A stretch of 64,000 nt of DNA. Origin: a virus (taxonomy: Duplodnaviria; Caudoviricetes). The notes below the pieces were generated by a model. It worked only from the letters and a program-made list of their open reading frames with translations. It searched no databases and was not told where the DNA came from. Where the stretch lies: IMG/VR virus record IMGVR_UViG_3300037067_021710; one strand, 5' to 3'. Shown here piece by piece: positions 51,303 to 64,000 of the stretch. Position numbers and translations under genes: made by a program. Numbering within the stretch: the stretch's first letter is position 1; every line of letters starts with the position of its first letter.

Positions 51303-51854
51303 TTATAGTGGTTTAAGCTCCTTAGTAATTAAGTCTATTCTCTCTGATAAATCTGGCCCTATAGCTAAACAAGTTATAGTTGGTTTATTTACTTTGCCGG
51401 TTCCATTACAATTTTTACATTCAATAGGCATACCATAACCATTATGAAAAGACCCCTTACCTTCACAATCAAGGCATGTCTCTTTAAATTCTGTATTACC
51501 GTTATCAGTAATAATAGCATTAATTATACCAACTTCTTCAGCTTGTTTTTGTAAGGAAAGAAGACTCTCTAATGAATCAACTCCAACAACTATTTTAGCA
51601 AAAGAACCTTCCATCCATTCTAACATTGGATCATTTTTACCAAAAAGTAATTGCTTCTTAATTAAAGGAGTCATTATATACCCAGAACATTTTTTCTGTT
51701 GTTCGTCTAATTGAAACACAGGAAGTTCATTTTCTTCTGTACTCATTTTATCAAAAAACACTTTCATTGAAGCATGAGCACCTTGAGCAATCATTTTGCC
51801 CTTTCTCATGTTAAGATCAGTACGCATTATAATGACTTGCTTTGTAGTGTACAT
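51303..51854 (-). CDS. pth2: Peptidyl-tRNA hydrolase, Pth2 family, with inserted CxxCxGxG zinc finger
   Basis: RTDLNMRKGKMIAQGAHA, KIVV, ITDNGNTEF, TCLAIGP. Confidence 0.9.
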   Translation of the reverse strand: MYTTKQVIIMRTDLNMRKGKMIAQGAHASMKVFFDKMSTEENELPVFQLDEQQKKCSGYIMTPLIKKQLLFGKNDPMLEWMEGSFAKIVVGVDSLESLLSLQKQAEEVGIINAIITDNGNTEFKETCLDCEGKGSFHNGYGMPIECKNCNGTGKVNKPTITCLAIGPDLSERIDLITKELKPL

Positions 51855-53317: not shown

Positions 53318-53347
53318 ATAAAATTTCTCCTAATAAGCTAATAAAAA

Positions 53348-53436
53348 AGACTATATAGGGTTAAGCACTCAACAGAGCCAATCAAGCACACTTCTAGGAA
53401 GCATTAACCCCAAGCGATTGGAACTTTATATAGTCT
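53348..53436 (-). ncRNA. Structured RNA element at the 3' end of the tRNA cluster
   Basis: Closing stem AGACTATATA/TATATAGTCT plus U-run; internal GGGTTAA/TTAACCC and CCAATC/GATTGG complementarity. Confidence 0.4.
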
Positions 53437-53440
53437 TATG

Positions 53441-53513
53441 CTCTGTGAGCTAGACTCGAACTAGCGACCCTTTGATTAACAGTCAAATGCTCTACCAACT
53501 GAGCTATCACAGA
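53441..53513 (-). tRNA. tRNA-Asn(GTT)
   Basis: Full cloverleaf; TTTGA-CTGTTAA-TCAAA anticodon arm; GTTCGA T-loop. Confidence 0.92.
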
Positions 53514-53518
53514 ATATT

Positions 53519-53590
53519 GGGGGTGACTGGGATTCGAACCCAGAACTTTGCCTTTGTGAGGTAATGTTTTATCCAATAAACTATCTCCCC
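53519..53590 (-). tRNA. Atypical tRNA (loop TCACAAA; ACA or CAC anticodon ambiguous)
   Basis: Normal D and T arms; one mismatch each in acceptor and anticodon stems; C at position 33. Confidence 0.55.
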
Positions 53591-53642
53591 CGAAATAATT
53601 ACTGGGTCACTCTCCCAGCAGATTCTTTATTGACGTTGGACT

Positions 53643-53736
53643 TGAATGGGGCACGATTCGAACGTGCGTTTTAATAGCAGGTGGTGATTTAATAATTTTC
53701 CCCACTATATGCGATTGACCTCTCCGCCACCCATTC
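53643..53736 (-). ncRNA. tRNA-like RNA with extended non-canonical anticodon arm
   Basis: Acceptor GAATGGG/CCCATTC; T arm GCACG-TTCGAAT-CGTGC. Confidence 0.65.
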
Positions 53737-53860
53737 TAATGCCAGTACTTTCCTGGCTGTCAGATTTTATGAGGGTTTAATCAGTTATCTCTGAAAATAC
53801 CAGCCCTACATTCTGTCAAGGTCTTTTGCTATCCTTGAGCTTCGGTACCTAAAGAGCATT

Positions 53861-53986
53861 GAAATTAGGCAGGATTCGAACCTGCTTACACCGTCGTGTA
53901 TGGGTTTTGATCTTTTCGGGTCCTTTGATCGTCATCGTTGGATTGCCCGTTTCCCATTGTGTCTGCCAAATTCCACCACTAATTTC
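53861..53986 (-). ncRNA. tRNA-Leu-like RNA with a 48 nt insert replacing the anticodon loop
   Basis: GAAATTAG/CTAATTTC; D arm GTGGAATTTGGCAGACAC; ATGGG/CCCAT stem; long variable arm; GCAGG-TTCGAAT-CCTGC. Confidence 0.7.
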
Positions 53987-53990
53987 ACTT

Positions 53991-54045
53991 TGGATTGTAT
54001 GAGAGTCGAACTCATCTGTACTTCTATCCCTCGATAAAACAACCC
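53991..54045 (-). ncRNA. Minimal tRNA-like RNA (acceptor, one hairpin, T arm)
   Basis: GGGTTGT/ACAATCC; ATGAG-TTCGACT-CTCAT. Confidence 0.55.
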
Positions 54046-54052
54046 TTTAATA

Positions 54053-54092
54053 AATAACCTAGACATTTTCTATAATAAATGTCTAGGTTATT
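54053..54092 (-). terminator. Strong hairpin, probable terminator
   Basis: AATAACCTAGACATTT/AAATGTCTAGGTTATT 16 bp stem. Confidence 0.7.
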
Positions 54093-54115
54093 GTTTTAAA
54101 ATTTTAAAACTTTCC

Positions 54116-54652
54116 TCAGTCCTCAGTATCAACAATCTTCATTTCTTTTCCAAACATAATAGCATACTCAGTTTTAATTATGTCTTGAATAGATTTGCAC
54201 TGGTCAATATACTGAGCCTGTTCAATAAGATTATTAATATCAAACTTGTCAAAATTTGAACGAAGTTCTGTAAGAGACTTTTCTTTATCAAGAATCTTAC
54301 TTGCAGCGTCATCATATGCAGCTTGATATTTAGTCTTAAGTCCCCGTTTCACCATTGGCCTCTTAGCAGCATCAAGAACTGCTTGACCCATTCCATATAC
54401 TTTGTCGAAAAAACCTTCACTCATACTATCATCTCCTTTATTAGATTTATTTTTTATGCTTTTAGAAGTTTGTAAAAACCCTATATCATCGTCATTTGAT
54501 AAAAATAAAGCTGCATAATGCATTCTAATATCTGGCCCTTGTTTACAAAGTTTTAAAGATATAGGGCAGTTAATGTCACACATTAAACTTACACAAGTTT
54601 TACCATTAGAATTTAGTATATCTTCAAGACCAGCTTTTATTTTTTCATTCAT
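54116..54652 (-). CDS. Cys-rich module fused in frame to a helical protein with a likely own start at 54424
   Basis: N-terminus paralogous to 54662-55123; internal AAGGAG RBS before MSEGFF. Confidence 0.6.
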   Translation of the reverse strand: MNEKIKAGLEDILNSNGKTCVSLMCDINCPISLKLCKQGPDIRMHYAALFLSNDDDIGFLQTSKSIKNKSNKGDDSMSEGFFDKVYGMGQAVLDAAKRPMVKRGLKTKYQAAYDDAASKILDKEKSLTELRSNFDKFDINNLIEQAQYIDQCKSIQDIIKTEYAIMFGKEMKIVDTED

Positions 54653-62839: not shown

Positions 62840-63313
62840 TTAATTAAGTATAAGCTCAATTGTATTTTTAAATACCCTCACTAATTGTTCAGATATATTA
62901 AATCTAGTTGTATTTATTTCAAGACTTTTATAGATATTACCATCATTATGTCGTTTTGAAGCACAATACCAATCAATCACCATTTCAAGCAAATCAATTA
63001 ATGTCATATCATTAATACCGTTTTTAAAATGCTCAGGATGATGTCTGTTATTAGCATAATGATGATCAAGCGCTATTTTTAATTGGTCTAAAGTCTTTTT
63101 GTATTCTTCTGAACCATATGTTGTTTGTGCTAATCGAGGGGTTAACTCTGAAAATAACCCAAATTCGGGAACTTCTAATTTTGATTGATCATGAGAATCT
63201 GCGCGTTGTTTAATAACTTCAGCAAAATTATATAATAAATCTTTAACTAATATTTTATGCTCTGTAGTACTATTAACACATTCTAAGTCTTCTTTCGTCT
63301 CAATTTTAAACAT
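62840..63313 (-). CDS. DUF5662-like HD-type protein
   Basis: HDQSK, HHYANNRHHPEH, EMVIDW. Confidence 0.75.
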   Translation of the reverse strand: MFKIETKEDLECVNSTTEHKILVKDLLYNFAEVIKQRADSHDQSKLEVPEFGLFSELTPRLAQTTYGSEEYKKTLDQLKIALDHHYANNRHHPEHFKNGINDMTLIDLLEMVIDWYCASKRHNDGNIYKSLEINTTRFNISEQLVRVFKNTIELILN

Positions 63314-64000
63314 TTAATTTTTTGACCTCTTTAATATAATTCCATTCTACCATTATTTGATATACAGTTCTCATATCTTTCTTATCAAACCATTGAGATA
63401 ATTGTCTCATAATAAATCCTTTATCTCCATTAGTATTTATTATTTTAACACAATCTTCTACTTTATTTTTAAATATAATTTTATCGATGCCAAGAATAAC
63501 ATCTTTTTTAATACGTTCCCAAGACTTATCAATTTGAAGTTGAGAATATTCTTCTTTTAATAGTTCAACTACATGATTAAAAAATTCTTCAGATTTTATA
63601 TTATCGCCATTGTAGTCTTCTACAGCATTTAATGTAGTATTAATAATAGAATAATGGGGAATTGAATCATTTACCCAATGAATTGCTTCAATGTCTTCAC
63701 TTTTACATTTGAATTGTATATAATCATTATCTTCTGTTTTTACATATAATACAAATCCTTCAGACCCGGTTATTGAACCATCTTCATTTTTAATATTATT
63801 ATTTTTATTATCTTGTCTTAGTTGATCATAAAATTTAGTTATGTCTTCAGTAGTATCTAATTGTTGTAGACAAGGTAAAGAAATATCTATACCAAAAAAT
63901 CCTGGCATCATTACTTTATGATTTTGCTGTTTAATTCCAAATAAAAGTTTAGCATCTAAAGAAGTATTATATTTTATAAGTAAGGGATTTCGAGTACCAT
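63306..64000 (-). CDS. RNA ligase-like nucleotidyltransferase, C-terminal part (probably begins beyond the window)
   Basis: EGFVL (motif IV) and FKCK (motif V). Confidence 0.55.
   Translation of the reverse strand, partial: GTRNPLLIKYNTSLDAKLLFGIKQQNHKVMMPGFFGIDISLPCLQQLDTTEDITKFYDQLRQDNKNNNIKNEDGSITGSEGFVLYVKTEDNDYIQFKCKSEDIEAIHWVNDSIPHYSIINTTLNAVEDYNGDNIKSEEFFNHVVELLKEEYSQLQIDKSWERIKKDVILGIDKIIFKNKVEDCVKIINTNGDKGFIMRQLSQWFDKKDMRTVYQIMVEWNYIKEVKKLNV

Follow-up and report, generated by a model that had tools for sequence, protein, structure and literature searches.

Can most genes of a phage tRNA cluster be unable to decode and, if so, are they relics or the source of another kind of RNA? 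The question is raised by a 64,000-nucleotide (nt) stretch, hereafter the window, of IMG/VR virus record IMGVR_UViG_3300037067_021710, an uncultured T4-related phage whose window encodes T4-like capsid (Gp23) and portal genes and has a G+C content of 30%. An earlier note, made from the letters alone, had described five tRNA-shaped elements here, one a canonical tRNA-Asn and four with remodeled anticodon regions. Sequence reading, RNA folds, ARAGORN and Rfam bear out this description, and all five elements lie where that note had placed them, on the minus strand inside 54045-53441. Only the last gene, tRNA-Asn(GUU), reads as an ordinary decoder; as encoded, the other four, termed E1 to E4 in minus-strand order, have no usable anticodon loop. 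We favor, tentatively and at slightly less than an even chance, the reading that the tract forms a tRNA operon in the style of T4, from which the first four genes would give rise to processed, CCA-tailed, non-decoding RNAs resembling T4 RNAC. The window is a piece of a 165-kb contig present in two independent assemblies, and the 801 nt compared are identical, which excludes an assembly artifact.

Clustering of the elements was tested by a strict scan that accepted only 7/7 acceptor stems directly adjoining 5/5 T arms with a TTCRA loop. It recovered E1, E2, E3 and tRNA-Asn, all within 605 nt on one strand, against about 0.75 hits per 64 kb in shuffled windows; thus, the cluster is not a chance occurrence. 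The claim that acceptor and T stems are preserved while anticodon regions are altered was confirmed, with 7/7 and 5/5 pairs, respectively, in each of E1, E2 and E3. Stem pairs are intact throughout E1 (16/16) and E2 (24/24) and, outside its new arm, E3 (16/16). Counted together, the stems of E1-E3 outside the altered arm comprise 56 pairs, of which two are G.U wobbles and none is a mismatch. U8 is present in all elements, GG in every D loop, and the T loops read UUCGAAU or UUCGACU. Large changes in E1-E3 (a deletion, an insertion and a replacement) are each confined to the anticodon arm, and none of E1-E4 has a canonical anticodon arm, that is, a 7-nt loop with U33 and a purine at position 37 on a 5-base pair (bp) stem. 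No CCA is encoded by any of the five genes.

This distribution of changes bears on the main rival of an RNAC-like reading, namely that a once larger tRNA cluster, situated in a hyperplastic region, is decaying and has left the tract as its remnant. Under decay, tRNA-Asn would still be used, and the other genes would be pseudogenes with no function, E1 inactivated by a deletion, E2 by an insertion, E3 by a rearrangement and E4 by point changes. We consider such decay rather unlikely, yet a serious competitor. Three independent large changes that all fall in the anticodon arm, with 56 other stem pairs free of mismatches, argue against it. So does base composition: the elements have a G+C content of 42-46% (49% for the E2 insert, by hand count) and the spacers 40-42%, in a genome at 30%, indicating that the tract has not drifted to the composition of its genome.

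Gene finders see the cluster only in part. The Rfam tRNA model (RF00005, gathering threshold 29 bits) recognizes tRNA-Asn (72.9 bits) and E4 (53.3 bits) only; E1, E2 and E3 have no match to it even at E <= 10. ARAGORN, with default settings, reads E4 as 'Cys(ACA)' and E3 as 'Ser(GGA)' and leaves E1 and E2 uncalled, and with its intron option (-i) reports E2 as tRNA-Leu(CAA) with a 41-nt intron.

E1 (53991..54045, minus) is a mini tRNA-like RNA of 55 nt lacking both an anticodon arm and CCA (fold z = -2.0). Its acceptor stem, GGGUUGU/ACAAUCC, is paired 7/7 including one G.U (G1-C72, G2-C71, G3.U70, U4-A69, U5-A68, G6-C67, U7-A66) and is followed by A73. The interior consists of U8, a 4-bp D hairpin (UAUC-GAGG-GAUA) and a 9-nt linker, and leads into a 5/5 T arm, AUGAG-UUCGACU-CUCAU. 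E1 thus carries the alanine identity elements, G3:U70 in a 7-bp acceptor helix plus A73. Alanyl-tRNA synthetase (AlaRS) charges anticodon-less helices bearing G3:U70 and A73, and judged by its sequence E1 would probably be alanylated without an anticodon. These features, a T arm, a D region that is reduced and the absence of an anticodon arm liken E1 to alanine minihelices and to the tRNA-like domain of transfer-messenger RNA (tmRNA), in which an acceptor with G3:U70 and A73, a T arm and a reduced D region let AlaRS charge the RNA. Despite G3:U70 and A73, E1 was rejected as a tmRNA: ARAGORN -m is silent and there is no tag open reading frame (ORF). E1 differs from tmRNA in being a free-standing 55-nt gene without mRNA-like domain, pseudoknots or tag reading frame.

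In E3 (53643..53736, minus; 94 nt; minimum free energy [MFE] fold z = -2.3), the anticodon arm is replaced by an 8-bp stem with a 19-nt AU-rich loop. The acceptor stem GAAUGGG/CCCAUUC (7/7) is followed by A73, the T arm GCACG-UUCGAAU-CGUGC is paired 5/5, and the variable loop has 5 nt. The D arm (UGGCGGAGAGGUCAAUCGC), with a 4-bp stem, is of class II type, and is closest to those of Tyr, Ser or Leu class II tRNAs. Neither conventional identity suits E3: no single excision yields a canonical anticodon arm, as expected of an intron-bearing tRNA, and to be a true tRNA-Ser(GGA) E3 would need G33, and it has no paired extra arm.

E4 (53519..53590, minus; 72 nt) is nearly canonical. Its loop, UCACAAA, has C33 followed by A34-C35-A36, and mismatches occur in the acceptor stem (A5.A68) and the anticodon stem (A29.C41). 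The discriminator is C73, which the G at 53591 may pair with as G-1:C73. By alignment E4 is nearest to Trp, Gly and Pro tRNAs, none clearly favored. Phage tRNAs whose altered anticodon loops let them escape host anticodon nucleases have been described (van den Berg et al. 2023, PMC10264068), and E4 resembles them in a loop that departs from the host consensus. Those tRNAs, with single-base loop changes, are still canonical decoders. In E4, by contrast, U33 is missing and A34 is unusual, and a decoding loop is altogether absent from E1-E3. The proposal that the elements are tRNA mimics holds in part. They are tRNA-derived, with the top half intact (acceptor, T arm, D-loop GG, U8); the suggested role as decoys for anticodon nucleases fits E1 and E3 poorly, because neither offers an anticodon loop.

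The closest precedent is found in T4 itself, whose tRNA cluster encodes two such RNAs, RNAC (species 1 RNA, rnaC) and RNAD; RNAC is stable and expressed, and its role is unknown (PMC3014915, PMC9697503). Like E1-E4, RNAC is specified by a small noncoding gene in a T4-type tRNA operon; it has no apparent anticodon and folds with an acceptor-like stem stacked on a T arm (CCGGG-UUCGAAU-CCCGG) and a large non-tRNA interior. In position and anatomy the elements agree with T4 rnaC as RNAC-like RNAs of a tRNA cluster. RNAC differs in having two U.U mismatches in its acceptor-like stem and a 100-nt multi-hairpin interior, whereas E1-E3, with D arms and perfect acceptor stems, are nearer to true tRNAs. 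Comparison of rnaC with the tract by eye, with no alignment run, showed no sequence similarity, and Rfam holds no RNAC family. By analogy, the elements may be of the same kind as RNAC yet closer to true tRNAs. That RNAC is stably expressed is a further point against decay, since it demonstrates that such expression is possible.

Expression, processing and charging of the elements, and any role as decoy or carrier, are what we infer from this anatomy. In the RNAC-like reading, the tract would be transcribed as one or two units, and host RNase P and 3' trimming enzymes would release each element. As no element encodes CCA, the host CCA-adding enzyme would complete the 3' ends. The products would be stable non-decoding RNAs of roughly 55, 126, 94 and 72 nt, predicted to act off the ribosome as mimics of the tRNA body, with E1 alanylated and E3 presenting a class-II-type body with A73. 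What is kept would correspond to the set of features by which the host recognizes a tRNA body: U8 and GG in the D loop, a T stem of 5 bp with a UUCRA loop and, stacked on it, an acceptor of 7 bp.

Relatives of the tract were sought in several collections. The only related contig, L067 (JGI 3300014205), encodes a homologue, 85% identical, of the product of the 129-amino acid (aa) gene downstream of the tract. Upstream of that gene, L067:1-184 holds a different tRNA-like RNA of 100 nt, uncalled by ARAGORN, in which the acceptor stem is paired 7/7, the T arm is canonical, the extra arm is long and a 5-bp stem with a CGAU tetraloop replaces the anticodon arm. A 21-mer of this element matched L067's own contig only. 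Ahead of the L067 RNA lies a structured segment of very high G+C content (L067:25-84), in a phage that is otherwise AT-rich. Similar objects, also uncalled by default ARAGORN, occur in tRNA clusters of unrelated phages that were fetched through their genes for PTH2-type peptidyl-tRNA hydrolase (L007:3358-3424, L037:11416-11477, L004:5371-5475, L006:7357-7457 and L040:248-352). All five have perfect acceptor and T arms and altered or missing anticodon arms: those of L007 and L037 are minis, that of L006 is rod-armed and encodes CCA, and that of L004 (105 nt, with G3.U70 and A73) lies 500 nt upstream of the PTH2 gene. Recurrence of comparable anticodon-less forms in L067 and in unrelated phages counts against decay. 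Because the L067 substitute is again tRNA-like and further examples exist in unrelated phage clusters, we lean slightly toward function.

Several findings nonetheless weigh against the RNAC-like reading, and most are those on which decay rests. Searches of INPHARED, IMG/VR and JGI metagenomes yielded no homologue of E1, E2 or E3, which leaves no covariation or conservation evidence. Specifically, blastn of the tract against INPHARED returned only generic tRNA similarity over E4 and tRNA-Asn; exact 20-25-mers from the 3' halves of E1, E2 and E3 were absent from IMG/VR, and the 3' 21-mer of E2 was absent from JGI metagenomes. The surroundings are similarly isolated. Two upstream genes, of 178 and 153 aa, are orphans with no homologue among 5.8 billion proteins (nor does the former have an IMG/VR relative), and the downstream 129-aa gene has the one homologue on L067. 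At the same site L067 has neither E4 nor tRNA-Asn, so its content differs and the region turns over quickly. The closest phage fragments, with 65% PTH2 or 51-71% capsid identity and 172 kb in full, contained one ordinary tRNA each and no comparable tract. Lesions in E4 (mismatches in two stems, plus C33, A34 and C73) are scattered over stems and loop, as random decay predicts. Fold z-scores are modest, from -2.3 to -1.7 for E1-E3 and 0.0 for E4, and no target for a mimic has been identified. There is also an ascertainment bias: only intact top halves are recognizable, and the spacers of 124 and 52 nt could be fully decayed tRNAs. Finally, as described below, E2 combines an insert with the loss of A73, and a stretch covering most of that insert folds like shuffled sequence.

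Two sets of matches were considered and set aside as evidence of relatedness. The 3' half of E4 matched a Pro(UGG) tRNA and an odd high-GC tRNA, which are unrelated and share T arm and acceptor stem. E2 and E3 are 83% identical over 23 nt, mostly generic T-arm sequence, and were rejected as paralogues from which covariation could be read. When the tract was compared with five bacterial genomes by BLAST, matches were confined to tRNA-Asn and the E2 D arm.

E2 (53861..53986, minus; +1 at 53985, G-1 at 53986 and C73 at 53861) poses a separate question, whether it is broken or split. It has a class II body of tRNA-Leu type with every stem intact (acceptor 7/7, D 3 bp, anticodon 5/5, extra arm 4 bp, T arm 5/5), and its anticodon stem AUGGG/CCCAU encloses 48 nt in place of a 7-nt loop. 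Of these, 41 nt (53912..53952, minus), unique in the window, form an insert at the 5' edge of the anticodon loop, at positions 31/32 or 32/33, the boundary A being ambiguous. What is retained is a loop, AUCAAAA (53905..53911, minus), with U33 at 53910, anticodon CAA at 53909-53907 and A37 at 53906. The earlier note had seen a structured 48-nt sequence in place of the loop. The helix CGGG..UCC/GGA..CCCG that it cited is present in the MFE fold, but the stretch 53900-53947 (most of the insert and the retained loop, minus the first five bases of the insert) folds like shuffled sequence (z = -0.6).

That note had also offered small-intron tRNAs handled by a phage RNA ligase, and E2 does read as tRNA-Leu(CAA) with a 41-nt insert in a phage that has an Rnl1-type ligase and Pnkp. 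The corresponding reading is that E2 is split but working: an endonuclease would cut out the insert while the anticodon stem holds the halves, and Pnkp and the ligase would seal them into tRNA-Leu(CAA). We judge this unlikely; it is compatible with either functional or decayed versions of the other elements. One excision restores A32-U33-CAA-A37-A38, with an anticodon that fits the Leu body, whereas a canonical loop could be restored from 13% of shuffled inserts and one with a Leu anticodon from 3.6%. An accidental match of body and anticodon is unlikely; it is equally expected after recent insertion into a working gene, and such an insertion into tRNA-Leu(CAA) would leave exactly AUCAAAA, as the decay reading holds. 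ARAGORN -i calls the same 41-nt excision, but its call is weak by itself, because 97% of shuffled inserts were also called 'intron tRNA', 17% as Leu. The decay reading can point in addition to UUG being a minor codon (7.2 per 1000).

Leucine affinity of the body is indicated by the D arm, whose 21-mer (53965-53985) is identical in at least 100 bacterial genomes; the genes carrying it that ARAGORN called are tRNA-Leu in 78/78 cases. Many of the carriers (L089-L168) are metagenome-assembled genomes of Cloacimonadota, Spirochaetota, Acidobacteriota and Deltaproteobacteria, and the match may be a weak clue to host or gene source. With the register set by the D arm, the E2 discriminator is C73, in contrast to A73 in all 78 of the cellular tRNA-Leu genes. 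Bacterial leucyl-tRNA synthetase dispenses with the anticodon arm in charging, a point for the RNAC-like reading, and A73C lowers leucylation approximately 50-fold (PMC2377443, Table 1), a reduction that a spliced E2 should suffer. G-1 and C73 could form a His-like G-1:C73 pair or, possibly, extend the acceptor to an 8-bp stem followed by A.

No cutting enzyme or recognizable splice signal for the insert was identified. By hand inspection, the E2 fold has an AAA bulge, the 4-bp CGGG/CCCG helix, a second bulge on the same strand and 12 unpaired nt after the helix, which does not fit a bulge-helix-bulge intron, and the splice sites that would yield AUCAAAA lie outside any such motif. A group I intron, with a self-splicing core of at least some 200 nt, is excluded by the 41-nt size of the insert, and at E <= 10 Rfam returned neither a ribozyme nor an intron. 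The insert was also checked for a target-site duplication; a GAUCAAA repeat exists and does not flank it. No relative of E2 was found with or without the insert.

Short inserts of this kind have been reported in other phages. Lak megaphage tRNAs contain short, 'enigmatic' non-group-I introns (Devoto et al. 2019, PMC6784885), and E2, alone among the elements, resembles them in having a non-group-I insert in the anticodon loop of a phage tRNA, with no known route of removal. The Lak example, of 93 nt, follows position 37 and has its own T-arm-like element; the insert of E2, of 41 nt, sits at 31/32 and does not have the shape of a tRNA. Conservation across genomes is a feature of Lak introns, whereas no second copy of the E2 insert is known. 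A clean case comes from an unrelated phage (L045:3583-3690), in which tRNA-Asn is split as CUG, a 33-nt hairpin and UUAA, with a whole-RNA fold z of -4.7. That 12-kb locus has no second tRNA-Asn, and a gapped search for further copies of the split tRNA retrieved its own contig only.

The sealing half of a cut-and-rejoin route is encoded nearby. A Pnkp gene and an Rnl1-type RNA ligase gene lie in tandem on the same strand, 9-11 kb upstream of the tract. The 3' part of the ligase gene (395 aa; L076:5115-6302) occupies 63306..64000 (minus) and 493 nt extend beyond the window end; the Pnkp gene (303 aa; L076:4192-5103; window-equivalent 64505-65416) is immediately upstream of it. Pnkp is readily recognized, with AAA_33 and HAD_PNKP domains (5e-42) and a match to phrog_505 (1e-83). 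Single-sequence searches with the ligase against Pfam, PHROGs, PDB sequences and, by tblastn, INPHARED (50,697 phage genomes) were silent. It nevertheless has ligase motifs I, III, IV and V (KLDGTN, FEMYG, EGFVLYV and FKCKS) and belongs to a family of 491 homologous clusters at 50% identity. In 45 homologues K95, D97, G98, T99, E163, G166, E245, G246 and K262 are invariant and K264 nearly so; 5 of the 45 match PF09414 (RNA_ligase), and neighbors in the ESM Atlas are RNA_lig_T4_1 clusters. A single-sequence model reached a predicted local distance difference test (pLDDT) score of only 36, and the fold match was taken from an alignment-based model (pLDDT 94), whose top solved match is T4 Rnl1 (2C5U, E = 1.5e-12). 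On this modeled structure, the 395-aa protein is a highly divergent Rnl1-fold RNA ligase and forms, with Pnkp, a T4-type repair pair.

Thus, the healing-and-sealing half of a cut-and-rejoin route exists. In T4, Pnkp and Rnl1 reseal a tRNA that a host nuclease has cut in the anticodon loop, and this phage resembles T4 in that a full-length Pnkp is encoded in tandem with a ligase of the Rnl1 fold. The T4 pair repairs damage by a host nuclease, whereas maturation of a split phage tRNA is a hypothesis here. Pnkp and Rnl1 are common in T4-like phages without split tRNAs, and their presence is therefore non-discriminating for splicing of E2. More doubtful still is a joint reading in which the phage would possess a private set of chargeable, non-decoding mimics, acting as amino-acid carriers or as sponges, together with a tRNA-Leu(CAA) matured by its own Pnkp and Rnl1. 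Synthetases that ignore the anticodon would then charge the alanine-identity 55-mer and the Leu- and class-II-type bodies, and sponge targets would be host tRNA-directed defense or processing enzymes.

The layout of the tract bears on one further possibility. A noncoding tract of about 0.77 kb (54100 to 53340, minus), without a credible ORF, is bounded by the 178-aa gene (end near 54116) and the 129-aa gene (start 53317), both on the minus strand. Its order is hairpin, E1, E2, spacer, E3, spacer, E4, tRNA-Asn(GUU) and a branched hairpin with U6, and gaps are 4 nt (E1/E2), 124 nt (E2/E3), 52 nt (E3/E4) and 5 nt (E4/tRNA-Asn). The first hairpin (54053..54092, minus), of 16 bp with a U-rich run, is strongly structured (MFE -19.9 kcal/mol, z = -7.1) and is either the terminator of the upstream 178-aa gene or a 5' leader of the tract. 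It is overlapped by a sigma-70-like promoter match, TTTAAA-17-TATTAT (54072..54100, minus; 9/12 matches), about 25 nt upstream of E1; this is a weak match to the consensus only, in a region with 8 such sites found versus 5.3 expected. The E2/E3 spacer (53737..53860, minus) has 40% G+C, no tRNA signal and a fold z of -0.8, ends in a hairpin, GCCAG-GAAAGUA-CUGGC, and may represent a further small RNA or else a tRNA in complete decay. Between E3 and E4 lies a terminator-like 7-bp hairpin followed by a U-rich run (53600..53620, minus). Canonical tRNA-Asn (53441..53513, minus), which ARAGORN also calls, has a G+C content of 45%. Beyond it, a long branched hairpin (53340..53437, minus; z = -1.8), with outer stem AAGACUAUAUA/UAUAUAGUCUU followed by U6, is likely the terminator of the tract.

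E1 begins 7 nt past the hairpin that ends the upstream gene, and spacers are only 4-5 nt at E1/E2 and E4/tRNA-Asn, as might be expected if the elements served as processing punctuation. Their top halves would then be RNase P and RNase Z signals by which the upstream mRNA receives its 3' end and tRNA-Asn is set free, and the RNAs themselves would have no role, like plant-mitochondrial t-elements. Only the parts needed for recognition by RNase P and the CCA enzyme are kept, and t-elements provide a precedent (PMC1920247). Four consecutive signals in a noncoding tract exceed any such need, however; D arms with the elbow GG and G3:U70 are unnecessary for cleavage, and tRNA-Asn itself contains determinants for RNase P. 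Punctuation alone is accordingly the least likely of the readings and, in our view, improbable.

Other genes of the region include one for a PTH2-type peptidyl-tRNA hydrolase (51303..51854, minus; PF01981, 3.6e-27), 1.6 kb downstream of the tract. The protein is 183 aa long, and its PTH2 domain is matched over residues 5-125. As only 88 profile positions are covered there, an insertion of some 30 residues is implied; a tail of about 55 residues comes after the domain, and weak PHROG matches fall at residues 96-157. Phage genes for PTH2, an archaeal/eukaryal-type enzyme, often lie inside tRNA clusters: in a survey set of 63 IMG/VR loci (L003-L065), of which 60 were scanned, ARAGORN tRNAs occurred within 6 kb in about 24. 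Among the 52 ORFs scanned in 36000-64000, matches to an Rv2179c-like 3'-5' exoribonuclease domain (1e-5) and to a cytidine/dCMP deaminase domain (1e-7) were each given by one ORF.

Provided that the RNAs are produced and processed, four members of this five-gene 'tRNA cluster' are not tRNAs in the decoding sense; standard annotation gives two of these a wrong label (Ser-GGA, Cys-ACA) and overlooks the remaining two. In that case, the elements would be relatives of T4 RNAC that are simple in sequence and open to testing, when the role of RNAC itself has gone unexplained for about 50 years, and the alanine-identity mini RNA would provide a direct handle on anticodon-less tRNA mimics in infection. 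Should the elements instead be relics, the tract documents decay of a phage tRNA cluster in which large changes are confined to the anticodon arm. To our knowledge, protein-dependent tRNA splicing has not been described for bacteria or their viruses; were E2 spliced, it would represent cut-and-reseal tRNA maturation in a bacterial virus and give Pnkp and Rnl1 a constructive role.

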